DNA of 60,549 nucleotides, taken from the IMG/VR virus record IMGVR_UViG_3300044638_004051, positions 1-60,549 of that record. One strand, 5' to 3'. This DNA is from a virus (lineage: Duplodnaviria; Caudoviricetes). Positions 9,137 through 30,994 of this stretch are shown piece by piece (positions within the stretch are counted from its first letter, which is position 1; each line of letters begins with the position of its first letter). A model generated the notes under the pieces. That model was not told the origin of the DNA and ran no database searches. It saw only the letters and a list, made by a program, of their open reading frames with translations. The position numbers and the translations under genes are program-made.

Positions 9137-9264
9137 CGGTGGCTCCCCTTTCTGCGGGCCACCTTGCCCCCAATTCGTAGCCCATATCCCTATGGACTCA
9201 ATAGCTCTAAACAAGAGCTAACTGCTTGCCCCCCCATGTAGAGGAAGGAGTTAATGGTTTCCTA

Positions 9265-18200: not shown

Positions 18201-18430
18201 TGAACATGAGAATGCTGATCCTCGTTGCGATTGTTGCGTTCGCTGTTGGCCGCTCGATGAGCGAGCCAGAGCCACGCCCCTCCCCCATACACGACCGCCC
18301 GGTGCTGCGGATACTGGTGCGTGTAGCCAAGCTGGGGCTGTGGGCGTTGGCGTTTGCCGAGCCAGCCCCGCATGAGCATCAGCATGTCCAGCATTCGCCC
18401 GATGCAGTCGATCACTTCCGGAGTCTGTGA
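18197..18430 (+). CDS. Small membrane protein
   Basis: Two hydrophobic segments; ATGA coupling. Confidence 0.6.
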   Translation: MMNMRMLILVAIVAFAVGRSMSEPEPRPSPIHDRPVLRILVRVAKLGLWALAFAEPAPHEHQHVQHSPDAVDHFRSL

Positions 18431-18594
18431 TGCACTGGCTTATCTCGGTACTCACTTGGTTATCTGCCGACCCGGTTGCGCTCGACACTAGCGTGCCACG
18501 GGCAGCGGCTGCATCGCAGGTGGCGTACGCCACGTTTGCGAAGGATGGGGGGAAGGCTTGTCCGACAGGTAACTGCCCGCCCACTCGCAGGTAA
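18430..18594 (+). CDS. Small exported protein ending CPTGNCP (not in ORF track)
   Basis: TGATG coupling; 54 aa MHWLISVLTWLSADP...CPTGNCPPTRR. Confidence 0.6.
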   Translation: MHWLISVLTWLSADPVALDTSVPRAAAASQVAYATFAKDGGKACPTGNCPPTRR

Positions 18595-18597
18595 TGG

Positions 18598-19113
18598 ATG
18601 ACACGCCGCCTTACGCCCAAGCAACAGGCAGTCGCAGAGGCTGCGCTGCGATACGTTGCCCCGTCTATCGCCGTGTTCGTGCGCAGAAACCCAGACCTGC
18701 GTGCCACGATCAAGCGCGTCGATATGGACAGCGTTGCACAGATGGCGGTGTGCATGGCAGCGTTCACCTACAATCCGGCAAAGAGCCAGCCCACCACGTA
18801 CTTCGGGAGTGCGATCAGACACGCACTCTATCGGGCTGTGTTGAACCAGCAGAAGCTGGATGGGAGATACGTTCCGGTCGAGAAGATACTGGAACCACAG
18901 CCGCACATCGCCCGCACCCGGCAAGAGATGCGGGCGATGCGTGCGCTGCGGTCCCTGTCGGCGTATGACCGGACGCTATTGGAAGACAGGCTGATCGAGC
19001 AGGTCACGCTGGAGCAGCTGTCGGTGGAGCAGCACTGCGATCCTCGCACGATTAGCAAGCGAGTGAAGCAGGCGGTCGCAAAGCTACGCTCGATTGAGGG
19101 CGATCTGCCCTGA
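18598..19113 (+). CDS. Sigma-70-family RNA polymerase sigma factor
   Basis: Region 2-like DSVAQMAVCMAAFTYNPAK..PTTYFGSAIR; region 4 HTH LSAYDR...TLEQLS...RTISKRVKQAVAKLR. Confidence 0.75.
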   Translation: MTRRLTPKQQAVAEAALRYVAPSIAVFVRRNPDLRATIKRVDMDSVAQMAVCMAAFTYNPAKSQPTTYFGSAIRHALYRAVLNQQKLDGRYVPVEKILEPQPHIARTRQEMRAMRALRSLSAYDRTLLEDRLIEQVTLEQLSVEQHCDPRTISKRVKQAVAKLRSIEGDLP

Positions 19114-19878
19114 TGACCACAGCCGCTGGAAGTCCTTGCGGTTGGTGATCATGGGGTAGCCTGCCTGCCTCGCCCGCAATGCCCATCGCACGGTATCGGG
19201 TCCGGTGAATCGCCGGATTGTCTTGCCGGTGAACCGGCCCCGGTCCTCTTCGTGCATGAACCACAAGGCAATGTCATCGAGGGACTGGCCTTCGTCATGC
19301 TGGGTCTGCATGAAGTCGATGACGCCACGCTCGTACTCGTTCACACGGTACGCCTTCTGCTGGCGGGTGCCGACCTGCTTCCACCCCACTGGCGACGAGC
19401 GAGAGAACGGAAGCCCGCTCTCCCGCTTGACCTGATTGTCACGCTTCATCTTGCGTGAGACCATGCGTCTGTACATGTGGGCATAGAGAACCATGTTGCT
19501 CTCCAGCATGTCGTACAGTTCCGCATCACCGTCCAGCCCAGACAGATCGGGCAGGTCGAGGATCACACGCTTCACCCCCTTGCGATCCAGCTGGTCGAGC
19601 GTTACGAACCCGTCTGTCTTGTTGCGGAACAGACGGGACATGTCCGCCACGACAAGGTAGTCGCCCGGCTGAAGGGCGAAGTACACCTGCCGCCCGTCAG
19701 GTCGCTCCGAAAAGATCGAGCCGCCCGACTCTGCCGGATCATAGAAGAACCCGGCCCACTCCACCCCCTTCTTAGCAAGGTGGGTATCGTAATAGTCACG
19801 GCAGGTCTTCTCCTGTACCTCCCGTGTCATCCCCTGTTTGGCGGTCGAATGCCGACCGTAGGCGTAGCACTTAGGCAT
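19084..19878 (-). CDS. Serine recombinase (resolvase/invertase-type catalytic domain plus C-terminal extension)
   Basis: YGRHSTAKQ (catalytic Ser), ESGG...ERP, GDYLVVADMSRLFRN. Confidence 0.85.
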   Translation of the reverse strand: MPKCYAYGRHSTAKQGMTREVQEKTCRDYYDTHLAKKGVEWAGFFYDPAESGGSIFSERPDGRQVYFALQPGDYLVVADMSRLFRNKTDGFVTLDQLDRKGVKRVILDLPDLSGLDGDAELYDMLESNMVLYAHMYRRMVSRKMKRDNQVKRESGLPFSRSSPVGWKQVGTRQQKAYRVNEYERGVIDFMQTQHDEGQSLDDIALWFMHEEDRGRFTGKTIRRFTGPDTVRWALRARQAGYPMITNRKDFQRLWSSGQIALNRA

Positions 19879-20188
19879 TGGGGTCTTCTCCTTTCCGTGT
19901 CTTGCGAACACGATCCGCGATGGCTTCGTTGAACACAGTGTCCCAATACTTCTTATGCCACGCATCGAAAGCGGCGATCATCTGCGTGCGATTGCTGGGG
20001 TCAAGCTCCTCCCACATGTAGTCGAAACAGAACCGCTGCATCTTGTTGCGGAATACCCAGTAACAGTTGCCGCTCTGCGCAATGTAGAGCCACCCCTTTC
20101 CCTTGCCGGGCAACCGCCAGCGGTAGATCAACTCCTCAATCTCCCCATTGGGCAGTCGGTACACGATGCGTTCGTTCACCTTTCCCAT
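19871..20188 (-). CDS. Hypothetical protein
   Basis: Coupled ORF in the minus-strand operon. Confidence 0.6.
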   Translation of the reverse strand: MGKVNERIVYRLPNGEIEELIYRWRLPGKGKGWLYIAQSGNCYWVFRNKMQRFCFDYMWEELDPSNRTQMIAAFDAWHKKYWDTVFNEAIADRVRKTRKGEDPNA

Positions 20189-20718
20189 CAGGCCACCGCT
20201 CCTTTCTTCGCGTAGTATGCTTGCTTCTTCCGATACGCAGCCAGCTTGGTCTTCGCCAATGCGAGCTTGCGTTCCCACTCACGCACCTTCTCGTCCGCTT
20301 CTTCCGCCCGACGCTCGATCAGCGTCAGCGGTTTCTTGCGTTCATACCTTCGCTTGGGCGGGGGCATCTGGGCAAGTAGGTCATACTCCGCAGCATGCTG
20401 GCGGAGATCGTTGACCCAGTCTTTCTCAAACTTCCGCCGATGCTCGTCACTGGTGTAGCAATACTGCACTGCCATCAGCAGCAGCGAGGACACGTCCTTG
20501 TCGGCAAGCGACTTGTACGAATCCACCTTCCCGCTTGTGGCCAGCGTGGCGAACAAGCGGTCGAGTATCGGCCGTGTCATTAAGGAGCCGCCCCAGTACG
20601 CGGGGTCCATCCCGCGCTTGCGACAGCGATCAACGTGCCGTGCATATGCACGGTCGAGGGACTGCTTGAGTATCCGCAGAATGTTCTGTTGAACTTGAGT
20701 CAGTGGTGGCTTTGTCAT
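20188..20718 (-). CDS. Hypothetical protein with basic coiled-coil tail
   Basis: GGAG RBS; coupled to the next gene. Confidence 0.6.
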   Translation of the reverse strand: MTKPPLTQVQQNILRILKQSLDRAYARHVDRCRKRGMDPAYWGGSLMTRPILDRLFATLATSGKVDSYKSLADKDVSSLLLMAVQYCYTSDEHRRKFEKDWVNDLRQHAAEYDLLAQMPPPKRRYERKKPLTLIERRAEEADEKVREWERKLALAKTKLAAYRKKQAYYAKKGAVA

Positions 20719-20720
20719 GG

Positions 20721-20795
20721 TCAGTTCTCCGAACGACATGAAATGAGGGACATGAACACCAGAGCAGCGATGAATGTGACAAGGTCAACCGGCAT
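20721..20795 (-). CDS. 24-aa hydrophobic peptide (not in ORF track)
   Basis: AAGGAGG RBS; MPVDLVTFIAALVFMSLISCRSEN exactly fills the gap. Confidence 0.45.
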   Translation of the reverse strand: MPVDLVTFIAALVFMSLISCRSEN

Positions 20796-22035
20796 AGGTG
20801 GGCACCTCCTTCGTGAGGTCGATCACCTTCGCCCACGCTGGCGGAGTCGAGTAGCTGGACCGTCGCACCAAAGCGATGATCAGCCTCGCCCGTGTGCGGT
20901 GGGCAGGCCAGTCGGTTTCCCCGTCAGTGACCAGCACAATCGCATCGGGACGCTGCTCGCGATCCTCGTCCTCGATTGCCTTGGCCATGTCGGTTCCGCC
21001 GTAGCCCTTGAACTCCCACTGCGACAGCGATGTGATCCGCTTCGCATCTTGCAACCGGCTGTCGAATGCCACGACACGGGGGCGATGCACCTTGCGTAGA
21101 CCGTGGGCAATCACAGTCAACGCACGGCTCTCGGTCCCAGACATGGAGCCAGACGTGTCGATGATGATCGAACACTCCGGAGCCAGCCGCACCACGCCAC
21201 GCTTGCGTGGGGTATCGGCCTGCTGCCTGCGGTTCAAGCGACGGTAGGTGTATTCCTCCGTGCCGATAGGCGAGGCAACCGACTTGGATACCACCGTCCG
21301 CAACTGATCGAACGGATCAGGCTGCGGATGCAGCCGGGCCTTGAGCGACTTGACCACCTCCCCCGGGACTGACCCGGGAGAGGATGACTCCAGCTGCTCG
21401 ATCTTCTTCTCTGCCTCACGCAGGCAGTGATCCACCATCGCATGCTCGACCGCAGACACGGGCTTCTCATACGGGCGTGGCACACCGTCGCTGTTGCTGC
21501 CCGCCTTGGCTGGATCGAGCGGGTTGCCGCCGTCTTCCTGCGGTTGTTCCGGTGTGTGCTGGAACAACAACCCGTAATACTGCTCGACCGTCATGCCCCG
21601 CACCAGTCCGGGGATGGAGAGGTAAGCGGTCTTCGTATCAGGGATGCAGCCGTCGATACGCACGATGCCGGACGGTTCGTCCAGACCGTGGTGCCTATCG
21701 AGCAACTGCTGGACAACCAGATCGGCGGCGAGATTCCACACATACCGCTCTCGCTCTGTCGCCTGTGGCACCGCCGCCTTGAAGCGGCGGCAGTGCGACA
21801 GGACAACGTGCATAACCTCATGCAGTAGGCAGTACGCCACCTCCATCGGAGTGAGCGAAGACATGAACTGCTCGTTGCAATACAGACGGTTGGCCTGATC
21901 CACTGCCATAGTTGGTATGGCTGTGGTCTCCACCGTCCGCATCATCGAGAAGACGTGGGTGAGGTAAGGCACCCACGTCCGAAGCCGCAGCTTCGCCTTG
22001 GTCAGCAGTCGCTGAACTGTGGTGAGAGTCTTCAA
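20785..22035 (-). CDS. Metallopeptidase + VWA domain protein (DUF2201-like)
   Basis: HEVMH zinc motif, WNLAADL; MIDAS DTSGSM, GGT, TDG. Confidence 0.85.
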   Translation of the reverse strand: MKTLTTVQRLLTKAKLRLRTWVPYLTHVFSMMRTVETTAIPTMAVDQANRLYCNEQFMSSLTPMEVAYCLLHEVMHVVLSHCRRFKAAVPQATERERYVWNLAADLVVQQLLDRHHGLDEPSGIVRIDGCIPDTKTAYLSIPGLVRGMTVEQYYGLLFQHTPEQPQEDGGNPLDPAKAGSNSDGVPRPYEKPVSAVEHAMVDHCLREAEKKIEQLESSSPGSVPGEVVKSLKARLHPQPDPFDQLRTVVSKSVASPIGTEEYTYRRLNRRQQADTPRKRGVVRLAPECSIIIDTSGSMSGTESRALTVIAHGLRKVHRPRVVAFDSRLQDAKRITSLSQWEFKGYGGTDMAKAIEDEDREQRPDAIVLVTDGETDWPAHRTRARLIIALVRRSSYSTPPAWAKVIDLTKEVPTYAG

Positions 22036-23123
22036 GCGGCACCTCCGATCTGGGAAACGAGCTTGCCGTACCGGGACAGCAGGTTCTTGGGAACACGGTA
22101 ATCCTTGTAGGTGTTGGTGATCTCGTTGAGAACCGGGCCGACGCAGTCGAGCATCCCGTTCTCACCCATCTCGATCAGCACCTTGACCGCCCCGTCCATA
22201 CGCTTCGACGCATGGTCATCGGACAGCGTTTCCAGAATCCCGCACGGCAGGAAGACCAGCTGATCGACACGGTCACCCGTGTAATCGATGGTCGCCTTGC
22301 CATCCACCACTTCGGCCGGATCGTACAGGTCTTTCGCAGCGATGCTCTGCATCAACTGCCCGGCACCCGCACTACCGACCATGCCAGTCGCGATCTGATT
22401 GATCACGTCGCCGTCTGCCTTGACCTTGTCCGCACCGGCGAGGCACCGGGCAAGGTTCGTCCACTGACGCAGCGAGGGAAACGCCCGCTCGTCATCGGGG
22501 ATACGCTTGCATCCACGCAGGGCAGGCTGACGCTGGAGCAAGTAGCCGACACGCCGCGTCCACTTCGGAACGTACGACGAGTAGTCGCCCACAATCGGGA
22601 AGTTGGTGGGCAACTTGAACTGCCCGCCGTTAAGCATGCCCTCGATCCACGAATCGAATGGGATTTCCCAGTCGTGGTGGTACAGGCGGTTCAACATCGA
22701 CGGCTCCAGCGGGCTGGAGTTGGGCGCGAGTTCCGGCGGATTCGCAGCGGCCACCCGGATAGTGGACGGGTGGAGAACCAGATCACCCACCCTGCCCTCG
22801 TTCAGCAGGGACAGGAGAGCAGGTCGCATTGACTGCGGGGCAGTGGTCAACTCATCAAAGATGATGCCCCACCCCGGCTGGGTCATGCGAACCAGCCACT
22901 CCAGATGCACCATGCGTGCGATGCCAGACTTCTTGTCGATGTCCGGCATGCCGCCCACGTCTTCCGGCATGTGCTGCGAAGGGATGAAGACGAACGGCTT
23001 GAGTCCCATCGCACGGATGAGAGCCTCAAGAAACGCCGTCTTGCACTCGCCCGTCCCGCCCCAAGCAATGCCCGGGACACCGCACTGAATCGCAATAAAC
23101 AAAGCCGCATTCAAGCAATCCAT
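22032..23123 (-). CDS. MoxR-like AAA+ ATPase
   Basis: Walker A variant GGTGECKT, Walker B IIFDE, AANPP, LNR; adjacent to VWA gene. Confidence 0.85.
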   Translation of the reverse strand: MDCLNAALFIAIQCGVPGIAWGGTGECKTAFLEALIRAMGLKPFVFIPSQHMPEDVGGMPDIDKKSGIARMVHLEWLVRMTQPGWGIIFDELTTAPQSMRPALLSLLNEGRVGDLVLHPSTIRVAAANPPELAPNSSPLEPSMLNRLYHHDWEIPFDSWIEGMLNGGQFKLPTNFPIVGDYSSYVPKWTRRVGYLLQRQPALRGCKRIPDDERAFPSLRQWTNLARCLAGADKVKADGDVINQIATGMVGSAGAGQLMQSIAAKDLYDPAEVVDGKATIDYTGDRVDQLVFLPCGILETLSDDHASKRMDGAVKVLIEMGENGMLDCVGPVLNEITNTYKDYRVPKNLLSRYGKLVSQIGGAA

Positions 23124-23182
23124 GATTGCAAACCTTTCAAGAAAAAATGAAACCCACCTAGCCACGGTGGGCAATCGAACAA

Positions 23183-24079
23183 TCAACCAGCGAAAGCCTT
23201 GAGTGCTTCCGCCCCGATCTTTTCGCGAGCAACCTGCGCTGCCTTCGCAACACGGGTGAACGCCTTGCCAAGCAGGGACTTGTTCGCCTGCATGGTTTCT
23301 TCAGCAGCGATCCACTGTTCCAGCCGCGTCTGCTGCCCGTTGCTGCGTGGCTTGGCACCACGTTGACGCATGTCTTCCGCGTCCTCGATCATGCCGTTGA
23401 ACACGGCCATGCTGCGCCGCTCCAACTCGCCACACACATGGGTGATCAACTCGCGGTTGACCACGGGCTGGAACCGCACGGTCTGCATGACCACGCCATG
23501 CCCAGACAGGGCAGAAGCCACGGTCTCGTACGCCGTGACAGAATCGGTGGGCATGTACCACACCACGCCTTCGTCACGCAGGAGAAACCCGTGCGATGCC
23601 TTGACCAGACCAGAGATAGCGTTGGTCAAGTCGTTGGCCGACACGAACTCGCACTGTTCACGCCAGCAGGCATCAGCCAGCTGGTTGATGGAGTTGCGGT
23701 GCTTCGCAATGGTGGGGCAGGACTTGCTCTCGATGTCGAGAATCTCGACGGCATAGCTGCCATCGTTCTGGCGCAGCACACCGAGCGAGAACAGGAACGG
23801 CAGGTCATTGCGTGTCTCGCCCACGATGAACCGCCTGACCTCGCACCCCACGGCATCCGACCGCCCGGCCAGACCCATGTACTTCACCTTGCCCCAGTCC
23901 GCCTCGCCGTGCGATGCGACGATCTCGCCAGCCGCACGATGCAGGGCACCGTAGTGATCGACCTTGGGCAGGAGATGCGTCATCCCCACCGTGTCGAACG
24001 CCTTCTCCGCCACGCCACGGGGAACACGCTTGCTCCCCCAGAACACGATCAAATGGTCACTCGTCAACTGCTTCGTCAT
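23183..24079 (-). CDS. Conserved partner of the AAA/VWA pair (DUF6744/DUF3150-like)
   Basis: LRDEGVVWYMP resembles the GGVYFVP motif; AAGGAG RBS; first gene of the triad. Confidence 0.5.
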   Translation of the reverse strand: MTKQLTSDHLIVFWGSKRVPRGVAEKAFDTVGMTHLLPKVDHYGALHRAAGEIVASHGEADWGKVKYMGLAGRSDAVGCEVRRFIVGETRNDLPFLFSLGVLRQNDGSYAVEILDIESKSCPTIAKHRNSINQLADACWREQCEFVSANDLTNAISGLVKASHGFLLRDEGVVWYMPTDSVTAYETVASALSGHGVVMQTVRFQPVVNRELITHVCGELERRSMAVFNGMIEDAEDMRQRGAKPRSNGQQTRLEQWIAAEETMQANKSLLGKAFTRVAKAAQVAREKIGAEALKAFAG

Positions 24080-24151
24080 GACAGCAAACTCCTTGTTGTG
24101 ATGGGCACCCGTTCAACATGCCCCCGTTGTCAAGAGCAGCACCGCGCCGCT

Positions 24152-24176
24152 CCCCCTTACCCTTCCACCCCCTGCC
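24152..24176 (-). repeat. G-rich motif copy (GGCAGGGGGTGGAAGGGTAAGGGGG)
   Basis: Near-identical to copies at 25707(-), 25918, 26871, 27948. Confidence 0.85.
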
Positions 24177-24233
24177 AAAAAACACCCCGGCCCCCGGGAA
24201 ACCAGCGGAAAACCACTGGGCCGGGGGCCGGGG
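24177..24233 (-). terminator. Rho-independent terminator
   Basis: CCCCGGCCCCCGG/CCGGGGGCCGGGG stem followed by TGTTTTTT on the minus strand. Confidence 0.7.
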
Positions 24234-24256
24234 TAGACACTGTCCTGACACTCTGA

Positions 24257-24538
24257 TCAGCGTCGGCTTTTCTTCGCCTTGCGATAGGCGTCACCGTCGT
24301 AGGTCAGCGTCATCTGACCGTCCTTGAATTCGCACTCGATGTGGCACTGGTGCAACAGTGCGTTGACCGCCCCAGTCAACACGTAATCCTCGTCCGTGTC
24401 GTACCCATTACGCACGGCATGGGTTGCCGCCGTAACGAGGGACAGAACTGCAATGGTTGGCAGTTCGGGATGGTGCATGTCCATCATGCAGTTGCACTTA
24501 GGCATACGCCGCTTGGTCTTCTTGGTCTTCGTCGCCAT
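24257..24538 (-). CDS. Hypothetical protein
   Basis: AAAGGA RBS; basic termini. Confidence 0.6.
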   Translation of the reverse strand: MATKTKKTKRRMPKCNCMMDMHHPELPTIAVLSLVTAATHAVRNGYDTDEDYVLTGAVNALLHQCHIECEFKDGQMTLTYDGDAYRKAKKSRR

Positions 24539-24551
24539 CACACAAATCCTT

Positions 24552-24743
24552 TCAGTGAGGAATAACTACCGTCTGCTCGATCTGCTCCAGCCGTGCAGCC
24601 AAACGCATGGCCGCGTCATACCGGACGGAGTGATCGTCTGGGCCACCCCAGATCAAGTCACTGTCATTGCACAACTCATCCATTGCTTCCTTCAGCAAGA
24701 AGAACTCCTGCGAAGACAGCATCAACGTGATCAGCCTGTCCAC
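24552..24743 (-). CDS. Hypothetical protein
   Basis: GGAGG RBS; coupled ORF. Confidence 0.55.
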   Translation of the reverse strand: MDRLITLMLSSQEFFLLKEAMDELCNDSDLIWGGPDDHSVRYDAAMRLAARLEQIEQTVVIPH

Positions 24744-25018
24744 TAGTTGTGACCCTCCAGTTGTTCACGCAACTCATCCGCCGTAAGCCCCTCCTCCGTG
24801 AAGCAATCCGCGTTGCCACGCTCATCACTGGAATACCCATTCCAGTAGGCGTAACTCACCTGCTCATTCCCGACACGCCCACCGCGCACCACGATCACAT
24901 CGTCCTCATGCCGATGCGTCTCGCTAACCGCAAGGGCGAGGTCATCCACATCCATGCCATGAATGCGGTCAATCAACACCTGACGCGCCTCTTCGTCACA
25001 CATTTCACGAACGTCCAT
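24743..25018 (-). CDS. Small acidic hypothetical protein
   Basis: AAAGGA RBS; D/E-rich. Confidence 0.6.
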   Translation of the reverse strand: MDVREMCDEEARQVLIDRIHGMDVDDLALAVSETHRHEDDVIVVRGGRVGNEQVSYAYWNGYSSDERGNADCFTEEGLTADELREQLEGHN

Positions 25019-25095
25019 CACTCACATCCTTTCCGTAAGAGTTCAAGAACAATACGAACCACAAGAAACAGAAGCTCCATCTCGCGATCATTCAT
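25018..25095 (-). CDS. 25-aa peptide (not in ORF track)
   Basis: AAGGAGG RBS; MNDREMELLFLVVRIVLELLRKGCE; TGATG coupling. Confidence 0.5.
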   Translation of the reverse strand: MNDREMELLFLVVRIVLELLRKGCE

Positions 25096-25190
25096 CACGC
25101 ACCTCCTTGTTGTGATGGGTATGTCAATAGCAACGGGGGTAGCCAGCACCGTGCCGACTACCCCCGTTGCACACAGGAAATCAAAAAGAA

Positions 25191-25652
25191 CTACTTGCTC
25201 GACTTGACCTCGACCTTGCTGGCAGCACCGAGTTGGCGGAGCAGTGCCTTGGCAAGGGCTTCGTAATCTACGGTCACATCGTCAACGTCGATCTCCAACT
25301 CACGGGCAACGTCAGACAGATCGAAGTGCCCCGCCACTTCAGACGCTTCCATGTGGCTCGCCACTTCGTAGTAGTCAATCTCGACATGCTGTGCGATGTC
25401 CTCGCTGTCGAGATGCTCGGCAATGTCCGATGCACTGACGCTAGTGTGCTTCGCCACATGGGTGTACAGATCGTCGGTGTCGATGTTGTCAAAGATCGCT
25501 CCGTAATCGAGATGCTCGGCCAGCTTCTTGACGTTGACGCGATCAGCGATTGCCTGCGCCATCCACTCCTTCGCCGTGTCACTCTTGAGAATGGCAGCGG
25601 CAATGGCGTTGATGATCGGGGTAGCAATGCGGGCAATGAACTTGGCAAACAT
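25191..25652 (-). CDS. Acidic tandem-repeat protein
   Basis: AGGAG RBS; ~9-11-aa repeats of the form D-x-x-(D/E)-(I/V)-A-x-H-(L/V/M/F). Confidence 0.7.
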   Translation of the reverse strand: MFAKFIARIATPIINAIAAAILKSDTAKEWMAQAIADRVNVKKLAEHLDYGAIFDNIDTDDLYTHVAKHTSVSASDIAEHLDSEDIAQHVEIDYYEVASHMEASEVAGHFDLSDVARELEIDVDDVTVDYEALAKALLRQLGAASKVEVKSSK

Positions 25653-25706
25653 GTGAACTCTCCTGTGTGTGAGCTTGGCCCCAGCTGTCTGACCGGCGGC
25701 GGCTCA

Positions 25707-25729
25707 CCCCTTCCCTTCCACCCCCTGCC
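25707..25729 (-). repeat. G-rich motif copy
   Basis: GGCAGGGGGTGGAAGGGAAGGGG, ~55 nt upstream of ATG 25652. Confidence 0.85.
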
Positions 25730-25809
25730 CAGCCCGGCCGCTGGCCGCTGGGGTAAGGCAGCGCGGGCGCGTCGTTAACGCATTCATTCACGTCATGCGG
25801 CCCGCACTA

Positions 25810-25984
25810 CAGCCCTGACGCTACGCCCTGCGTGAGTTCGGGCTAACGCTTCAACCGCGCTGACCTGACTGTCGTAGTCATTCGTTCATTGCACGGAATG
25901 AGAAGCCGCCGCTGCCCGGGGGGTGGAAGGGGTGGGGTAGCCAGCCGCTTGTGCTGGTGGGCATCTCAACAAGGAGACAGTGCA
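25810..25984 (+). repeat. Intergenic module copy 1 (box A, hairpins, G-box, RBS)
   Basis: CAGCCCTGACGCTACG at 25810; GGGGGGTGGAAGGGGTGGGG at 25918; CAACAAGGAG. Confidence 0.8.
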
Positions 25985-26764
25985 ATGGCTCGTCCGAATG
26001 GTGTGGTTCTCTACCGTGGCTATGGGTTTGACGGCACTCCCATCGTGGCAATCGCGGTGTTCGGTGAAAGCTCCAACTCCAAAACCGGGGGAATGATTCA
26101 AGTCCACATCCTGTGCGACAACGGTCAATCCCCTGTCGAGGCAGTGGTATCCGACGCAGACACTGCCATCTGTGATGGGTGCGTGTTGAAGGGCATCGCG
26201 TGGAAACTGCGTGGGTGCTACGTCAACGTGGCGACTGGTCCCGGTGCAGTCTGGCGGTGCTACATCGACGGCGGCTACCCGGACTACCAGCGTGCCGTGC
26301 ATGACGAGTATTTCGTGGGACGTGAGATCAGATGGGGTGCATATGGCGAGCCAGTGCTGATCCCACTGTCGATCATCTCGCACATCTGCGACCTGTCGAA
26401 CGGATGGTCTGGCTACACGCACCAGTGGCGGAAGGCTCGATACCGTCCGTATCGCCGGTACTTCATGGCGAGTACGCACACCATCGAGGACTGCCGGGAA
26501 GCCGTGAGTCTGGGATGGCGGTTCTTCAAGTCCGCCAACCAGCACACTGCCGAGGACATTGCCGCATTGCAGGCGATCACCCCCTGTTTCAACTGCCCCG
26601 CCAGTAAGGAACAAGGCCATCGGTTGCAGTGCTACCAGTGTCTGGCATGCAACGGACTTGAAACCCTGTCGGCCAACTACGCACAGCGTGCGTCAGTGTG
26701 GATCGACACGCACGGTGGGCTGGGCGTGATGCACACGTCGAAGCATCTGCCAATTCTCAACTGA
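25985..26764 (+). CDS. Cys-rich conserved phage protein (gp88-like / radical-SAM-derived family)
   Basis: SNSKTG, CDGC...CYV, RWGAYGEP, GYTHQW, CPAS...CYQCLAC. Confidence 0.6.
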   Translation: MARPNGVVLYRGYGFDGTPIVAIAVFGESSNSKTGGMIQVHILCDNGQSPVEAVVSDADTAICDGCVLKGIAWKLRGCYVNVATGPGAVWRCYIDGGYPDYQRAVHDEYFVGREIRWGAYGEPVLIPLSIISHICDLSNGWSGYTHQWRKARYRPYRRYFMASTHTIEDCREAVSLGWRFFKSANQHTAEDIAALQAITPCFNCPASKEQGHRLQCYQCLACNGLETLSANYAQRASVWIDTHGGLGVMHTSKHLPILN

Positions 26765-26945
26765 CAGCCCCAACGCTACGCCCCGTGACATACGGGGTAA
26801 CCGCGTAGTCCACGGCAAACGGGTAATGCCCGGCCACTCACGCACCACAACGTATGTGGGTGGCCGGGCCGCAGGGGGTGGAAGGGTGAGGGTAGGCCAG
26901 CCGGATGTTCCGGTGGGCATTTCAACAACAACGAAGGAGTGTCAC
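26765..26945 (+). repeat. Intergenic module copy 2
   Basis: CAGCCCCAACGCTACG at 26765; GCAGGGGGTGGAAGGGTGAGGG at 26871. Confidence 0.8.
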
Positions 26946-27299
26946 ATGACACACGCAGACGCAGTTCGCATGGTTCGTGGCAAGACCAACAAGACCAGCC
27001 GCAAGATCGGCAACAACACGTACGGAATCATTCACGACAACGGCGACGTGGGCATTGTGCTGCATAGCACGGAAGTGGTGACCATCCACGCGGACGGCAC
27101 GTATACCCTGCGATCCGGCGGGTGGCGGACAGTGACCACGAAGGATCGCATCAACACGTACTGCCCCTACCGTGTGACGCAGCGCAAGGGCGAGTGGTCC
27201 GTGTCTTACTGGAATGGCCACTCTCACAGCGACAGCATCGAGTTTGAAGACGGCATGTGCGTCAGTCACGACATGTTCAACCAGTTGGTCAACGCCTAA
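26946..27299 (+). CDS. Conserved small phage protein (GGWRTVTTKDRIN motif)
   Basis: AAGGAG RBS before ATG 26946. Confidence 0.7.
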   Translation: MTHADAVRMVRGKTNKTSRKIGNNTYGIIHDNGDVGIVLHSTEVVTIHADGTYTLRSGGWRTVTTKDRINTYCPYRVTQRKGEWSVSYWNGHSHSDSIEFEDGMCVSHDMFNQLVNA

Positions 27300-27327
27300 T
27301 CCCACACTCACAGAAAGGAACACTGCG

Positions 27328-27852
27328 ATGACACACGAAATCGAGCGATTCAATGTGGGCAATGTCACTGTCGTGATCACCCATGATCCCGATCCCCTCA
27401 ACCCGAGAAAGGAGTTCGACAATGCCGGGACAATGGTGTGCTTCCACAGACGCTATGCGTTGGGAGACACGCACGACTTCGGCACACCCGATGACTTCCG
27501 CACATGGCGGGCGGAGAACGAAGGCGACATTGTCGCGATCATGCCACTGTTTCTCTACGACCACAGTGGCCTGACAATGCGGACCACTCGCTTCGATTGC
27601 CCGTGGGATAGTGGGCAAGTGGGCTGGATTTACCTAACCCGCCAACGGCAGGAAGAGTGGGGCATTGCAGACCCCTCCGCCACACTCACGGTTGAAGTGG
27701 ACACATACGACGAATACCTGCAAGGGAGCGTCTATTGCTTCAGCATTGTGCAAGACGGGCAAGACGTTGACGGATCGTGCGGATACATCGGGCTGGATCA
27801 CTGCCGCACAGAGGCACGGCACACGGCCGAAGGGTACGCCTTGCAGCCCTGA
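27328..27852 (+). CDS. Conserved mobile-element protein (YDHSG...PWDSGQVG motif)
   Basis: AAAGGA RBS; motif typical of phage/ICE accessory genes. Confidence 0.7.
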   Translation: MTHEIERFNVGNVTVVITHDPDPLNPRKEFDNAGTMVCFHRRYALGDTHDFGTPDDFRTWRAENEGDIVAIMPLFLYDHSGLTMRTTRFDCPWDSGQVGWIYLTRQRQEEWGIADPSATLTVEVDTYDEYLQGSVYCFSIVQDGQDVDGSCGYIGLDHCRTEARHTAEGYALQP

Positions 27853-28028
27853 CGCTACGTCGTGCGAGTTCGCGATCATCGCGAATTGCTCGACACTATA
27901 TGCAAGAAGATTCCCCCCTCCGTTGTCACGGTGCCCATCCGGACAACGGCAGGGGGTGGAAGGGTAGGGGTGTGGCAAGCTGGCAACGTCGCCAGCCCCA
28001 CGGGTTCATTGTTTGAAAGGGTTACACC
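27844..28028 (+). repeat. Intergenic module copy 3
   Basis: CAGCCCTGACGCTACG at 27844; GGCAGGGGGTGGAAGGGTAGGGG at 27948. Confidence 0.8.
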
Positions 28029-28487
28029 ATGGCCGCGAAGACGAAGACTGCGACGAAGACTTTCACGGAAGCCGATTTTGAGGCTGAAATCGCACGACGG
28101 CTGGCGGAGAGGGAGAAGTCTGCGAAGGCCGCGAAGGATGCGGCAAAGGCCGCGAAGGATCGTCCGGGTTTGAATGCCATTCCCACGACGGAAGCGGACA
28201 CGGAAAACAACGTGTTGGCCCGGTGTGTGTACAACACGGGGGACCACGCCATTCACGGCACGGCCGTCATGGTCAACCACGACGGGAAGCATCTCCCGCG
28301 ATTCGGGCTGTCTGTCCGTGGCATCTTCCGGATTCCGGGGGACACGGACACTGACGCGGAACGGCTGGTTTCCGCGATGGTGGCAAAGGCCGAACACGCT
28401 CCGGCCATGCTCGCCATGCTCACCAAAGCCTACACCGCCGCCGCGAAAGGCCACACCTTCCGCGTGAAAGAGAAGGCCGCGAAGTAG
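28029..28487 (+). CDS. Hypothetical Ala/Lys-rich protein
   Basis: ORF between module copy 3 and a strong terminator. Confidence 0.7.
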   Translation: MAAKTKTATKTFTEADFEAEIARRLAEREKSAKAAKDAAKAAKDRPGLNAIPTTEADTENNVLARCVYNTGDHAIHGTAVMVNHDGKHLPRFGLSVRGIFRIPGDTDTDAERLVSAMVAKAEHAPAMLAMLTKAYTAAAKGHTFRVKEKAAK

Positions 28488-28494
28488 TCGCACG

Positions 28495-28525
28495 AATCCC
28501 CCGGGGAAACCCGGGGGATTTTTTT
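28495..28525 (+). terminator. Rho-independent terminator
   Basis: AATCCCCCGGG-GAAA-CCCGGGGGATT followed by a T run. Confidence 0.85.
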
Positions 28526-29197
28526 ATGTACCTACCTACTGGTGTACAAACGTACAGTATGGAAACAGGCGGCACTCTTTCATTCCCCACCCGCCACCAT
28601 GCGGCGAGTGATGGAACCTTCGACCCGGACGTAAGTGGCTGGCAGCAAAGGAGTTACGACAAGCCCACCCCGTCCACCCCCCAATCCATACATATATATA
28701 TATATGTCCCGCTCTTGGATTTTTTCCAGATTTGCAAAGGGGCAACAGCACCGTCTCGCAGCCCCCTGCTGCACCGTTTCGCAGCCGCTGTTGACATGCT
28801 GTCCATAACTAGAGCAGCAGGCTAGAGAGCATCCGGCAACCGCTACCGGCCCCGTGGCTCTGGCCGTGCAAGCCCGAGGCGTAACGCAGCCCGACAACGG
28901 CTTGGCGACGAGGTGGACCGGGCAGTGGCATACCAGCCCCGGGTGGAGCGATCCGCCCGGGGCTGTGCTGTTCCCAGTGACTACTCCGCAGTCCGCCAGC
29001 CACCACCCCCTAGAGATTCTGCCCAAAGATTTCTCTGGCTGCGTGTCGCAAGTGCCCTGCTACCAGCGTGTTCCAGATTCCAGAACGAGAGAGAAAGTCA
29101 TTCTTGTAGCTGTGCAGTTTGGTAAAGGTTCTGAATAACAAGCCTATCCCAGTAACCATCCCCGTAACGCTCTTGACAGGTTCTTACGCTGGGGGGC
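28526..29197. other. Large non-coding region; candidate genome terminus/pac site or origin
   Basis: (TA)n palindrome 28690-28707, C-runs, direct repeat 28748/28771, long hairpin 28934-28965. Confidence 0.45.
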
Positions 29198-29836
29198 ATG
29201 GGCCTAGACATCCTTACACCGAAGGGACAGGAGACGGTCGCTCAACTAGAGCGGGCGGTCTCTCTCTGGCACGGGCACCGGACCAACCGGATGTACGTTG
29301 CCACCCCTGCTGACGAGCCTGCCTCTGTAGATGCCGTCCTAGCGGATGGCGAGGGGGTTGTGCGGGCGGTTGTCGAGACCAAGTGCCGCAGCAACATCAG
29401 CTTGGAGGGGTTCCGCACCACCTTCAAGAACGAGTGGCTTGTCACGATGGACAAGCTGACAAGGGCGTGCCGGGTGAGCGAGATGCTGTGCGTCCCGCTG
29501 GTGGGCTTCCTCTATCTGGTGGACGAGGACGTGCTGCTCGTCCAGAAGCTGACCGACTCCAAAGGCCAGTTCTGCGTGCCTTTCCGGTGCGACAACACGG
29601 TGACGCAGAAGACCGTGAACGGAGGGGAGATTGTCAGAGCCAACGCCTACATCGACATGTCCAAGTGCCGGGTCTACGAACGAAGACCCTCTGGTGCGGT
29701 TGCATCGGGAGTACCGGGAGGAGTGCATCCGGCTGGGGAAGTATCGCCCCTTCAGTCCGGAGGAACTTCAGCAGGCCGAGGCCCGGCACAAGGCACGGTG
29801 CGACCGAATCCCGAACCAGCCCACACGAAAGCGTAA
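29198..29836 (+). CDS. PD-(D/E)XK nuclease-like protein
   Basis: VDAVL...VVETKCR. Confidence 0.6.
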   Translation: MGLDILTPKGQETVAQLERAVSLWHGHRTNRMYVATPADEPASVDAVLADGEGVVRAVVETKCRSNISLEGFRTTFKNEWLVTMDKLTRACRVSEMLCVPLVGFLYLVDEDVLLVQKLTDSKGQFCVPFRCDNTVTQKTVNGGEIVRANAYIDMSKCRVYERRPSGAVASGVPGGVHPAGEVSPLQSGGTSAGRGPAQGTVRPNPEPAHTKA

Positions 29837-29863
29837 GCACCCTCCGAAAGGTACGGCTGACTG

Positions 29864-30070
29864 ATGACCATGCCATACGAGCGTTACCGCGCCATCCACA
29901 ATACACGCGAGTTTCTGATGGATTTGCTCGATCCACGCAAGACTCCTCGCGTACCGAAACCAGTCCGCCAAGCGGCGGCTCGATGCTTGCGGCACTACCC
30001 CATGTCTCACGACATGGAACAGGTGGCCCGCAAGTGTCCGGCGACGTTTGGCACTGGCAAGTGTGATTAG
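29864..30070 (+). CDS. BPSL0761-like small protein
   Basis: MTMPYERYRA...TREFL..L...VR..A..CLRHYP. Confidence 0.7.
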   Translation: MTMPYERYRAIHNTREFLMDLLDPRKTPRVPKPVRQAAARCLRHYPMSHDMEQVARKCPATFGTGKCD

Positions 30071-30102
30071 GACCGACCCCAGCCAAGGAAGGAAGGATTC
30101 GT

Positions 30103-30402
30103 ATGCGTTGGTTTGTTCTTGCGTCTCTGCTTCTGACTGCGTCCGTTGCCAGTGCCGATAGCACCTACTATCGGTCTCGCACGGTCACTGTCTTCCGCTC
30201 CGCTCAGGAGGATGCGGATGACATGGCTCGGACTGGCGTTCTCCGCCACCGGGGCTGTTCGTCGTACGAAGGCGTAGGTTTCTCGACCGTGTCGGCCGAT
30301 CACGCCATTCGCAACTGCTGTTTCTGGGGCCAGCGGAAGGTCAGGGAGGTCGCGGTTGCTCGCGGCCCGCGTGGCTGGTTTGCCTGCGTCCGCTACTGGT
30401 GA
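30103..30402 (+). CDS. Secreted minimal CAP/SCP-like protein
   Basis: Signal peptide; AQ..A..MA..G.LRH...EGVG...NCC.WG...VARG..GWFAC. Confidence 0.6.
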   Translation: MRWFVLASLLLTASVASADSTYYRSRTVTVFRSAQEDADDMARTGVLRHRGCSSYEGVGFSTVSADHAIRNCCFWGQRKVREVAVARGPRGWFACVRYW

Positions 30403-30472
30403 TGTTCATCCCGGTTTCCGCAGGGTTCCGGTCCACCAAAAACCCTGCTTTCCATATTCGCGAAAGAAGAAA

Positions 30473-30994
30473 ATGACCAAGCGAGACAGCCAGTTGCGTG
30501 AGTACGCCAGCGAGGCAGCGGACATCGTCACCCGGCTGCGGGACCGGGCCTACTCGTTCAAAGCCCCCGATCCTTTGTTGGAGGAAGCGGCGGATGAGAT
30601 CGAGCGGCTGCGGCAATTTGATAGGTTGCAGCCTATCGAACCCGCCGCCGCTACACCCGCCACGCACGCTACACCGGGCGATGGTAGCTTGCAGGGCGAG
30701 GGTACATTGCCCCACTCGTATCGGGACAACGACGAAAAACGTGGCGTATCTGATACGAAAAGGGGGCCTGTGGCGTGGGCAATCCTTCACTTAGACCAGC
30801 AGTACGTCAGTCTTCTGCGAGAGATGGCAGAGGCTCACAATGTGTTTGCTGCGCCGATTGTACCGCTCTACCGCTCGCCCACGCTCACCAACGAGGAGCG
30901 GGAGGCGGTTGAGGCGGCAATCTCGTCCGAGTATTCAAGAGGCGCGTGGCACTGGGCAGACACGCTCCGCTCGCTGCTGGAGCGTCTCCAGTGA
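30473..30994 (+). CDS. Hypothetical mosaic phage protein
   Basis: DIVTRLR...EAADEIERLR and PVAW...PLY motifs common in phage accessory genes. Confidence 0.6.
   Translation: MTKRDSQLREYASEAADIVTRLRDRAYSFKAPDPLLEEAADEIERLRQFDRLQPIEPAAATPATHATPGDGSLQGEGTLPHSYRDNDEKRGVSDTKRGPVAWAILHLDQQYVSLLREMAEAHNVFAAPIVPLYRSPTLTNEEREAVEAAISSEYSRGAWHWADTLRSLLERLQ

Follow-up and report, generated by a model that had tools for sequence, protein, structure and literature searches.

Introduction

Lambdoid morons usually bear individual, unrelated promoters. The promoters of T7-group RNA polymerases are phage-specific, single-block sequences, those of the N4 virion polymerase are hairpins, and ECF (group 4) sigma promoters combine a GGAAC −35 word with a −10 block 16–18 nt downstream. 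In the promoter-early stem-loops (PeSLs) of T4-like phages, the promoters are host sigma-70-type early promoters. As portrayed in the accounts cited here, PeSLs are composite terminator/promoter cassettes located in hyperplastic regions (PMC4122927; PMC2839356). The stoperators of Cluster A mycobacteriophages are described as sites paired with a monomeric repressor (PMC6550527; PMC9283540), 20–30 of which follow the direction of transcription and whose consensus differs between heteroimmune phages (PMC6550527). For Cluster K, the SAS/ESAS are reported as a repeated, asymmetric 13-bp word that precedes non-structural genes in one orientation and whose reader is unknown; the SAS is placed 3–7 bp from the start codon and contains the Shine–Dalgarno sequence (PMC3203893).

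Here we analyze a G-rich box in an uncultured lake/freshwater phage, the window being the whole virus record of 60.5 kb (CheckV completeness 100%). The phage shows SU10-like portal and adaptor matches and is probably temperate, as its integrase gene adjoins a tRNA-Met-like 3′ fragment. From sequence comparison we tentatively read the box, with slightly less than even confidence, as a promoter-region word that is private to the lineage and heads moron-like cassettes: Like lambdoid morons, these are independent accessory units with their own start signal and terminator or hairpin, flanked by the conserved modules of a temperate phage; unlike morons, the five units of the window share one exact word.

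Results and Discussion

A G-Rich Box at the Head of Five Accessory Units

The initial annotation had listed five copies of an oriented G-rich box in front of accessory genes, and searches with a 17-mer and a 13-mer confirmed them all. With up to one mismatch, the 13-mer core GGGGGTGGAAGGG occurs six times in the record (three forward, three reverse), always within 24160–28681, and the core read backwards gives no match. Because the window is an entire, complete record, the supposed restriction to this region holds genome-wide; early and structural operons contain no copy in the core search of the whole record. The 17-mer GGCAGGGGGTGGAAGGG, searched with up to three mismatches, yields six matches in the window, five of which are the main copies (shuffle control: mean 0.23 matches, 0 of 100 shuffles reaching six), and we take the remaining match at 13415, which has three mismatches, as chance. 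The full box spans about 25 nt, GGCAGGGGGTGGAAGGG-N2-3-GGGT[G/A], with a conserved order of the non-G letters (T, AA). All six cores lie outside the set of 71 ORFs, non-coding DNA making up 6.5% of the genome.

Copy 1 (24152–24176, minus strand; 17-mer match 24160–24176) reads GGCAGGGGGTGGAAGGG-TAA-GGGGG and heads a minus-strand unit running from 24079 to 19084 that encodes a 298-aa protein, an AAA ATPase, a DUF2201/VWA protein, small ORFs, and a serine recombinase. Copy 2 (25705–25729, minus; match 25713–25729) heads the unit from 25652 to 24257 on the same strand, which comprises a 153-aa protein and small ORFs. Across 185 nt it points away from copy 3 (25915–25939, plus; match 25915–25931), which has the 5′ flank CCCG instead of GGCA and precedes a 259-aa gene (25985–26764, plus). 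Also on the plus strand, copy 4 (26870–26894; match 26870–26886) heads the genes at 26946–27299 and 27328–27852, and copy 5 (27948–27972; match 27948–27964) the gene at 28029–28487. Each of the five has the orientation of the next gene, as the annotation had maintained, while the core-to-ATG distances (80, 60, 53, 59, and 64 nt in order) span 53–80 nt and not the claimed ~50–75 nt. In the 19–28.5 kb region, a box opens five of the six gene units delimited by hairpins, and the short gaps inside units (24541–24552 and 27299–27328) have none; the hairpin-delimited boundary at 25021–25191 has TTGACA and the shared leader and lacks the G box.

The variant sixth copy (28663–28682, minus; GGGGGTGGACGGG) has no gene downstream. 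Its core match (28669–28681) is real, but it overlaps a C-rich element, CCACCCCCCAAT, that adjoins a (TA)n palindrome. Since this element or a C-rich counterpart occurs at the same place in relatives with other boxes or with no detected box, the sixth variant is not clearly an independent copy.

Architecture of the Junctions

At the junctions, a hairpin, the box, a second hairpin, and a Shine–Dalgarno site follow one another. Copy 1 is directly abutted by a terminator-like hairpin with a T6 run (24185–24205, minus) that closes the upstream unit; a hairpin with a 15-bp stem (26828–26869, plus; fold z −2.87) ends immediately 5′ of copy 4, and the 3′ arm of another (27911–27960, plus; z −2.97) enters the 5′ half of copy 5. 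Just 3′ of copy 4 lies a hairpin at 26896–26918 (plus), and equivalent hairpins of unrelated sequence follow the other copies, for instance at 27979–27996 (plus), 24133–24153 (minus), and 25669–25707 (minus). An intrinsic terminator at 28494–28521 (plus) closes the last plus-strand cassette. The neighboring hairpins vary in sequence and size, and in four of the six box segments folding is no stronger than in shuffles (z above −2). The upstream hairpin of the initial annotation is hence present, and terminator-like at copy 1, but strongly folded only at 26870 and 27948.

Plus-strand cassettes end in a further module, Box A (CAGCCCTGACGCTACG; 25810–25825, 26765–26780, and 27844–27859, plus), whose start precedes that of the 13-mer core by 109 nt in each of the three copies. 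In these three junctions all 13 positions of the core are invariant, whereas only 14 of the 86 columns separating Box A from the G box are invariant. This limitation of conservation to a 13–25-nt word between near-random flanks suggests that the word itself is under selection.

The position of the box between two hairpins and its strict orientation to the genes would also suit an RNA-level function, in which the box, transcribed within a 5′ leader or between cistrons, would be the site where a phage-specific RNA-binding protein or nuclease controls processing, stability, or translation. We consider this improbable: Owing to the terminator immediately before copy 1, little upstream transcript should reach that copy; copies 2 and 3 diverge with no recognizable promoter between them; and the pairing of the box in predicted folds is inconsistent among copies, with most segments folding like shuffles and an Rfam search returning no match.

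In its layout the locus resembles the PeSLs, in which variable accessory genes are likewise separated by a small repeated junction, a stem-loop and then a promoter-type word, in the same orientation as the genes. The window box differs in that it has no −35/−10 hexamers and is a G-rich, lineage-private single block; moreover, its carrier is no T4-like myovirus but a temperate phage of 60 kb whose portal and adaptor give SU10-like matches.

Private Boxes in Related Phages

Four copies of GGGGGGAGAAGGG are found in the relative L048, arranged as in the window and accompanied by different cargo genes. Upstream of the 298-aa gene and of the 153-aa gene, two orthologous positions, its box reads GGGGGGAGAAGG[G/A], and all four copies share identical changes relative to the five main copies of the window. 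In L045, GGGGGTAGATGGG precedes the 298-aa gene, the first of these positions. The box thus changes concertedly in relatives, and other lineages have unrelated boxes. In the syntenic divergent region, G002 has six exact copies of CGCCCCGGCGAG (three minus, three plus) and G003 has five (three minus, two plus), every copy being succeeded by a hairpin, which in turn precedes a gene. On the plus side of L048 both Box A and the G box are kept, and the four plus-strand cargo genes of the window have no tblastn match in 25 related loci. The box and the 3′ module (Box A plus hairpin) may accordingly form a conserved junction between swappable cargo genes, the occurrence of different cargo at the same junction in window and L048 being a further likeness to PeSLs.

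The exchanged cargo could also be expected if the box were a passive junction repeat, that is, a remnant of duplicated cassettes or a substrate of homologous or site-specific recombination that is homogenized by gene conversion and read by nothing. Gene conversion could yield the concerted change, and a fast-evolving serine recombinase adjoins the region in 24 of 25 loci (26–66% identity, versus 60–77% for the phage sigma factor). Serine-recombinase sites, however, are dyads, which the box word is not; its conservation ends at the word, with flanks near random, and at the boxes the contigs of four runs, which can miss rare forms, are free of joints, inversions, and alternative junctions. We therefore regard a passive repeat as rather implausible.

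A different pattern is found in G001, whose private box GCGGATTTCCGGCAAC occurs 25 times, all on one strand and in short intergenic gaps, 7–9 nt before the Shine–Dalgarno site and with no terminators between the genes; at the head of the region, six copies in 400 nt form a tandem, gene-less array. This pattern looks more like an operator or a start-associated site than a promoter. Together with L059, where the repeated word is an extended Shine–Dalgarno site, G001 recalls the Cluster K start-associated sequences (PMC3203893), both words adjoining or including the Shine–Dalgarno site, and in this respect lends some weight to an RNA-level function; the gene-less array, on the other hand, makes no sense as an mRNA signal. 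Measured against the same published SAS, the window box is set apart by its position 53–80 nt upstream, with a hairpin between box and Shine–Dalgarno site.

The G001 array and one-strand copies are also reminiscent of an operator cluster followed by stoperators, and the box might accordingly be an operator for a phage repressor that silences the accessory units, either by occluding their promoters or by acting as a roadblock; co-evolution of repressor and site would then give each lineage its own word. Such an operator is in keeping with a probably temperate phage, and the word shares with Cluster A stoperators, as far as the cited accounts characterize them, its asymmetry (at least 13 nt here, ~13 bp there), its many copies (the five main ones along transcription), and a lineage-specific consensus that drifts in concert. 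Yet the 20–30 sites of those accounts are genome-wide and mostly off promoters, whereas the window has six in 4.5 kb, none of them in early or structural operons, and its boxes stand only at unit starts behind terminators, never in intra-operon gaps; a terminator would already make a roadblock placed right after it superfluous. Furthermore, Pfam and PHROGs searches of the 71 ORFs detected no HTH or repressor-like protein, nor did a search of 20 small ORFs at E values up to 5. An operator function is for these reasons unlikely, albeit worth serious consideration.

G-Quadruplex Potential

The G-quadruplex potential ascribed to the G-runs is real: In a G4Hunter-like scan, 11 windows of 25 nt in the genome score at least 1.7, and six of these are boxes (1.84–2.28). 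The L048 variant G7-AGAA-G3-N3-G3 fits the canonical pattern if the G7 run is split, and G-richness is maintained in the three G-type lineages. That the box serves as a G4 or single-strand DNA signal (or as hairpin plus G4), for example during DNA entry, is nevertheless very improbable. Non-G boxes (CGCCCCGGCGAG; GCGGATTTCCGGCAAC) occupy the equivalent place in phages of the same family; the box alone contains only three runs of G3 or more, and a canonical four-run motif arises in two of six copies, there using flanking Gs; the conserved non-G letters are needless for a G4; and this genome yielded no virion or single-subunit RNA polymerase gene whose product could read the signal. Among the three roles proposed by the initial annotation, the entry signal is not supported, and a promoter or protein-binding site fits best with one box per unit, strict orientation, and concerted change.

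Possible Promoter Function and Candidate Reader

A consensus scan for sigma-70 promoters in 18000–30500 found three sites where 3.9 would be expected; each falls within an ORF, and no box coincides with one, in agreement with the annotated dissimilarity of the box to such promoters. The conserved sequence is one contiguous block of ~25 nt with no second conserved block 16–18 nt away, so that the box fits neither sigma-70 nor ECF promoter geometry. The promoters of T7-group and N4 polymerases resemble the box in being contiguous (~23–25 nt), present in many copies, co-oriented with genes, different between lineages, and ending in a G-run; the window phage differs in having no detected polymerase gene of either kind, and its neighboring hairpins, unlike those of N4 promoters, vary.

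We infer that five accessory units, each terminated separately, may have the G box as the conserved core of their promoter regions: A trans-acting transcription protein would recognize the box and position RNA polymerase, and transcription would begin just downstream, giving mRNAs with a 5′ hairpin, the shared leader, and the Shine–Dalgarno site. The reader might be the sigma-70-family factor that the phage itself encodes (18598–19113, plus) or, alternatively, an unrecognized activator. This two-domain, ECF-like protein is the only candidate reader found, a candidate by sequence and model: All 33 family members match TIGR02937, the pLDDT of the AF2 model is 91.5, and all Foldseek matches listed among ranks 1–50 are sigma factors. 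All 25 related loci carry the sigma gene, and the predicted recognition helix and one sigma-2 loop of its product differ between lineages. The GGAAG in the box resembles the GGAAC of ECF promoters; in contrast to these, the box is one block without a conserved −10 block 16–18 nt downstream, and boxes differ completely between lineages whose sigma factors are 60–77% identical. The link between sigma factor and box is weak because G005 shares the predicted recognition helix of the CGCCCCGGCGAG phages yet lacks their box, the 32 kb seen containing no exact CGCCCCGGCGAG copy and no 12-mer repeated three or more times.

Some junctions additionally feature −35-like words. CTCTTGACA lies at 24128–24136 (minus), 24 nt after the GGAAGGG block of copy 1, with a second intergenic copy before the structural genes (29170–29178, plus). 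It is found family-wide, and L066, where there is no G box, retains it as well, so promoter function in the copy 1 unit may not depend on the box. In three of three copies, the private box of L067 is located 9–10 nt ahead of a TTGA(C/T) −35-like word.

A G-Rich Word Marks the Starts of Accessory Units

Five copies of the G-rich word (G box) stand at 24152 (−), 25705 (−), 25915 (+), 26870 (+) and 27948 (+), and all of them share the orientation of the gene that follows: From core to ATG there are 80, 60, 53, 59 and 64 nt, respectively, which confirms the five oriented copies upstream of start codons described in the initial annotation, at 53–80 nt. A 17-mer search allowing up to three mismatches yielded six matches in the window, whereas shuffled sequences gave a mean of 0.23 and 0/100 reached six; five of the matches are the copies named here and one, with three mismatches, lies at 13415. 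The 13-nt core GGGGGTGGAAGGG, with at most one mismatch, was likewise found six times genome-wide and zero times in a backwards-read control. The proposed restriction of the word to one region was borne out, as 6/6 cores fall within 24160–28681 of an IMG/VR record of 60,549 nt whose completeness is 100% (CheckV). Non-coding DNA, which makes up 6.5% of the genome in our set of 71 ORFs, holds every one of these cores. Alignment of the five main copies with four copies from two relatives (nine G-type copies) gave a full box of ~25 nt with the form GGCAGGGGGTGGAAGGG-N2–3-GGGT(G/A).

The copies occupy unit starts only, and no copy falls in an intra-operon gap: Within 19–28.5 kb, five of six hairpin-delimited units begin with a G box, and the sixth unit boundary (25021–25191) combines a hairpin, a TTGACA word and the shared leader without one. 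In the three plus-strand junctions the core is invariant at 13/13 positions, whereas only 14 of 86 columns are invariant in the stretch between the G box and Box A, a second repeated word of these junctions. Because of this difference, the alignment presents the conservation of the core as an island and not as the residue of a recent duplication. An invariant 13-mer amid otherwise random flanks would also be left unexplained if the box were a passive recombination scar, which we consider very unlikely. The contigs of four DNA runs have zero joints at the boxes, a comparison that lacks power because these contigs diverge from the window by only ~0.6%; among the differences listed, none affects a core, and the variable spacer contains one (26888).

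Architecture of the Units

The elements of a unit follow one another in the order hairpin, G box, second hairpin (of unrelated sequence between copies) and leader. Copy 1 directly abuts an intrinsic-terminator-like hairpin that carries a T6 run, strong hairpins precede copies 4 and 5 (fold z −2.87 and −2.97), and the preceding hairpin extends into the box with its 3′ arm at copies 2 and 5. The view that the box mostly comes right after a hairpin therefore holds for copies 1, 2, 4 and 5, but not convincingly for copy 3, where the predicted preceding fold is weak. The leader CATCNCAACAAGGAG, which contains the Shine–Dalgarno site, is common to several units (three copies with zero or one mismatch), and the leader/ribosome-binding word CATC(A/T)CAACAAGGAG lies at 24089–24103 (−), 25103–25117 (−) and 25962–25976 (+) and is also present in the related locus L048. 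Each plus-strand junction starts with Box A (CAGCCCTGACGCTACG; 25810–25825, 26765–26780 and 27844–27859), whose first base precedes the first base of the 13-mer core by 109 nt in all three cases across unrelated spacers; in L048, Box A stands 104–109 nt ahead of the plus-strand boxes. An extra copy with two mismatches lies within an ORF at 17253. Since Box A coincides in part with the preceding gene's stop codon or comes after it, with a hairpin next in line, we read it as a putative 3′-end module of the preceding cassette.

We tentatively interpret the G box as a promoter-region word of the accessory units, a reading to which we give slightly less than even confidence, because there is one box per unit, placed directly behind terminators or hairpins in strict orientation, because no other promoter is visible at the junctions, and because the hairpin and leader that come next form a layout typical of a 5′ untranslated region. 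Moreover, a −35-like word closely follows the box of the related locus L067: In 3/3 copies CACTTGGCGACC stands 9–10 nt before TTGA(C/T). That the box acts at the RNA level is decidedly unlikely, because copy 1 has a terminator in front of it, copies 2 and 3 stand back to back, the predicted RNA folds are inconsistent and contain no consistent pairing of the box, and the relative G001 carries a gene-less array of its word. Rfam and tRNA scans returned nothing relevant.

Genome Context and Lifestyle

The 71 ORFs were compared with PHROGs and Pfam. The structural module (+; major head protein, large terminase, SU10-like portal and adaptor, tail proteins) extends from 29.2–60.5 kb on into 0–8.3 kb and is followed by a tyrosine-integrase-like gene at 8276–9214 (−), an early operon at 9.2–19.1 kb (+; exonuclease, Erf, helicase, RusA and, as the last gene, a 171-aa sigma-like protein), an operon at 19.1–24.1 kb (−; 298-aa protein, AAA ATPase, DUF2201/VWA protein, serine recombinase) and small genes at 24.2–28.5 kb, most of them without a named family. 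In a close strain (runs X3 and X6), 132 nt at 24712–24845 are replaced by 93 others within a small-gene unit, off the boxes. A conserved trio at 20785–24079 (−), which comprises the family-less 298-aa protein, an AAA_5-type ATPase and the DUF2201 metallopeptidase/VWA protein, is kept in 9–11 of 25 relatives; no other cargo behind a G box is conserved. Single-protein locus searches gave zero relatives of the 919-aa protein and three distant loci for the 259-aa protein.

Adjoining the integrase-like gene is a tRNA-Met-like 3′ fragment (~9290–9345) with an anticodon-arm-like CCGGCTTCATAAGCCGG, a T-arm and an acceptor end, in which ARAGORN finds no whole tRNA. This fragment probably serves as the attP core through which the phage would integrate into a host tRNA gene, and because it lies beside the integrase-like gene, the phage is probably temperate. 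GenBank phages gave no match to the window by DNA, portal or sigma. Window DNA occurs in runs from lake-water or freshwater metagenomes, none of which is registered as RNA. The sole match in genome collections is a 58-kb contig (L074) of a MAG that bears the label uncultured Rubrivivax sp., a weak clue to the host, possibly a Burkholderiales bacterium, that may reflect binning only.

Related Phages Carry Lineage-Private Words

From an alignment of 33 sigma homologues we gathered 25 related IMG/VR loci, in which tblastn detected the sigma gene in 25/25, the convergent serine recombinase in 24/25, the 298-aa gene in 9/25 and the four plus-strand cargo genes of the window in 0/25. Upstream of the 298-aa orthologue, the window and the loci L048 and L045 share the order terminator, G-type box, hairpin, CTCTTGACA and leader, and the box reads GGGGGTGGAAGGG in the window, GGGGGGAGAAGGG in L048 and GGGGGTAGATGGG in L045; at the same place in L066, the terminator and CTCTTGACA are kept and the box is missing. 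The L048 record contains four copies of its own variant (two exact, two with one mismatch) in a divergent arrangement as in the window, with Box A preceding the plus-strand copies, and the L045 record (87% complete) contains one copy only. Box copies are thus alike within a genome and orthologous copies unlike between genomes, a pattern that marks the G-type boxes, as judged from these alignments, as evolving in concert.

Other lineages use other words. For motif finding, exact 12-mers worked and approximate 12-mers were too noisy. In the complete records G002 and G003 the word is CGCCCCGGCGAG, embedded in a longer conserved block: G002 has three minus and three plus exact copies flanking the divergent point, G003 has five (three minus, two plus), one of them distant at 57088, and at the copies examined a GC hairpin comes next and then a gene. 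The complete record G001 carries 25 one-strand copies over ~11.6 kb, wrapping the record ends; its 16-nt word GCGGATTTCCGGCAAC (coding strand) stands 7–9 nt ahead of the Shine–Dalgarno site with no further conserved block after it, and six copies form the gene-less tandem array within 400 nt (locus L070, G001:C1:57355–57756), beside the same (TA)n palindrome as in the window. A tRNA-like fragment with a T-arm-like GGTTCGAGTCC and an acceptor-like end lies between two G001 copies (L069–L071); ARAGORN reports no tRNA there. In L059 (13001–15255), the extended Shine–Dalgarno word CCC(G/A)AAGGGAGA heads at least six consecutive small genes at 6–7 nt before the start codon. In the 32 kb seen of G005, the CGCCCCGGCGAG box is neither exact nor repeated (two one-mismatch matches), and no 12-mer is repeated three or more times. 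Conservation in relatives, which had been proposed as a check, hence extends to L048 and L045 for the G-type box itself, but G001, G002 and G003 have other words and L066 has none.

Further G-type relatives were sought by pattern scans. An exact 15-mer matched 35 IMG/VR loci once each, and a degenerate pattern matched 29, among which only the contig of L048 had two matches together with gene-wide resemblance to the window; L205, another of these loci, has a weak local tblastx match. The box pattern occurs in at least 112 stretches of metagenome contigs, and none of the 80 compared is similar to the window.

The words of the sister lineages bear on two further explanations. An operator of the stoperator kind, bound by a phage repressor, would account for words that are private to each lineage and whose copies drift together in a probably temperate phage, and the layout in G001 would fit; stoperators have such an appearance (PMC6550527). 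The boxes of the window are, however, few, confined to 4.5 kb and missing from intra-operon gaps, and a roadblock would be redundant where they stand, so that we regard an operator as unlikely. The suggestion that the G-runs form a G-quadruplex stands with respect to propensity: All six copies have a G4Hunter-like score of 1.84–2.28, and boxes account for 6 of the 11 genome windows at or above 1.7. Four runs of G3+ are, however, absent within the box, the canonical pattern occurs at only 2/6 copies and needs flanking Gs, sister lineages carry non-G boxes, and the order of the non-G letters is conserved. The latter two points argue that the box would be read as sequence and not as a G4 fold, and a G-quadruplex signal is highly improbable.

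Comparison with Known Systems

The absence of resemblance to a sigma-70 promoter, as initially noted, was upheld: Within 18000–30500, TTGACA/TATAAT-like hexamers 16–18 nt apart occur at three sites versus 3.9 expected from shuffles, and all three lie inside ORFs, none at a box junction. Promoters of ECF sigma factors combine a GGAAC-like −35 word with a CGT-like −10 block 16–18 nt after it. The corresponding word is GGAAG in the five main copies of the window, AGAAG in L048 and AGATG in L045, and the window encodes a two-domain sigma-70-family factor as a candidate link to the box. The box differs in having no spaced −10 block: The nine aligned G-type copies have no conserved block 16–18 nt downstream, and their conserved columns end ~10 nt past GGAAGGG.

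The closest layouts are those of the PeSL cassettes of T4-like phages and the morons of lambdoid phages, and the closest evolutionary behavior is that of stoperators and of the phage-private promoters of T7-group polymerases. T7-like and N4-like promoters differ in that no cognate RNA polymerase gene was detected in the window. PeSLs are described as terminator/promoter cassettes (PMC4122927). As in PeSLs, a stem-loop comes directly before a conserved promoter-type word (abutting at copy 1; also at copies 2, 4 and 5) at a junction between variable genes, the window and L048 sharing Box A and G box with differing cargo; the PeSL word is, however, a host-type early promoter, whereas the G box has no sigma-70 hexamers. 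Stoperators of Cluster A mycobacteriophages number 20–30 sites across the genome and are mostly not promoter-associated (PMC6550527). They share with the G box an asymmetric ~13-bp word oriented with transcription (5/5 main copies co-oriented), but all six window sites lie in 24160–28681 at unit starts and no repressor gene was recognised by family among the 71 ORFs. The start-associated sequences (SAS) of Cluster K mycobacteriophages stand only a few bp from the start codon and contain the Shine–Dalgarno core (PMC3203893), which resembles the extended Shine–Dalgarno word of L059 and differs from the G box at 53–80 nt from the ATG with a separate Shine–Dalgarno site downstream.

Further candidates were rejected: The GG-N10-GC spacing of a sigma-54 promoter misfits by eye, a Chi-like site would be shorter and not restricted to intergenic DNA, iterons or a centromere misfit copies 0.2–1.5 kb apart in both directions, and serine-recombinase crossover sites misfit a word that lacks dyad symmetry, with no inversions seen in four runs. 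As the box lacks some defining features of each compared system, we file it as a repeated, lineage-private cis-regulatory word that heads accessory cassettes, with reader and mechanism at candidate level. Neither the phage family nor the word is described in the sequence collections searched; the literature search was aimed at the comparators.

Candidate Readers

Among the 71 ORFs, no RNA polymerase family was found by PHROGs or Pfam, and the 1244-, 1687- and 919-aa proteins retrieved no RNA polymerase among PDB sequences. The atlas neighbours of the large proteins are virion or polyvalent proteins, the 919-aa protein groups with ART-PolyVal polyvalent proteins, and the few D-x-D-x-D words stand in unconvincing contexts. 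At the level of sequence and atlas neighbours no phage RNA polymerase was detected, from which a very divergent enzyme could escape. Likewise, no HTH or repressor-like protein appeared in the 71 ORFs or in 20 small ORFs at E ≤5, many of the ORFs being family-less.

The 171-aa protein (18598–19113, +) is a sigma-70-family factor. It matches TIGR02937 at E 2e-10 with 40.5 bits (cut-off 42.9), as do 33/33 homologues (best 8e-16). The single-sequence AF2 model was poor (pLDDT 46.6), and we used the alignment-based model instead, which has the expected two helical domains (pLDDT 91.5). Among the Foldseek matches listed (ranks 1–50), all are sigma factors, with TM-scores of 0.29–0.39, low values that are expected because the two domains are flexibly linked. 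Lineages differ at three positions of the predicted recognition helix and at three more in a sigma-2 loop, so that co-variation of sigma and box is possible.

It is conceivable, though we rate it as unlikely, that the phage's own two-domain sigma reads these fast-drifting lineage-private words and co-evolves with them, which would give mutually orthogonal sigma/promoter pairs that drive swappable cassettes. Each word would then be read as a single block of ~25 contiguous nt that dispenses with the usual −35/−10 spacing, and changes in the word would be matched by changes in the recognition helix and sigma-2 loop throughout a widespread, temperate, freshwater phage family. Against the sigma as reader, its gene is present in all relatives, including G005 without a box; the related locus L063 has the same helix as L062 and L064, but not the same box; and the box is one contiguous block without a second block 16–18 nt off. 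The word CTCTTGACA, which is intergenic at 24128–24136 (−) ahead of the 298-aa operon and at 29170–29178 (+) ahead of the first structural-side gene, is a candidate family-wide −35 element and may be what the conserved sigma, or the host's sigma, actually targets. Intergenic occurrences of CTCTTGACA are also seen in the related loci L045, L047, L048, L051, L052, L066 and L074, including the early regions of relatives.

The phages concerned are abundant: Public data hold at least 234 homologues of the sigma (the best 120 at 68–95% identity), many on ~60-kb lake-water contigs, and none of these phages is cultured or related to GenBank phages. A private word per lineage offers a practical handle for annotating their transcription units, helps locate swappable cargo genes with likely roles in host interaction or defence, and provides a way to group phages by regulatory specificity. 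If the phage sigma were the reader, the family would offer a naturally occurring set of orthogonal sigma/promoter pairs whose promoter geometry is unusual; if a repressor were, a stoperator-like immunity network outside Actinobacteria phages.

The Sixth Copy and the Palindrome Region

The variant at 28663–28682 (−), reported as a sixth copy beside the (TA)n palindrome, does match the core with at most one mismatch, but may be a conserved neighbour rather than a true box, because the C-rich element under it (CCACCCCCCAAT) and the landmark CCGCTCYTGGATTTTTTC recur, exact or similar, in relatives whose boxes differ or in which no box was detected. Antisense pairing of the other copies with the sixth was rejected, as G001 has no inverted copy. 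The palindrome itself (18 bp of (TA)n, then CCGCTCTTGGATTTTTTCC; 28690–28730) is found, whole or in part, in G001 (L070) and in the related loci L049, L190 and L073, each time separating the accessory region from the first structural-side genes; its role could be that of an origin, packaging site or control region.

The surrounding non-coding stretch is long (28488–29197) and contains two near-identical direct repeats (GCACCGT[C/T]TCGCAGCC; 28743–28787) whose starts are 27 nt apart and which are followed by a TTGACA word. Further downstream, in the bin 28859–29075, runs X6 and X8 have raised contig depth and X3 and X10 a slightly raised one; loose ends of several contigs lie at 28875 and 28912, where they match ~37 nt and then diverge from the window. 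A short stretch of this bin is apparently shared with other genomes and could be a conserved non-coding element.
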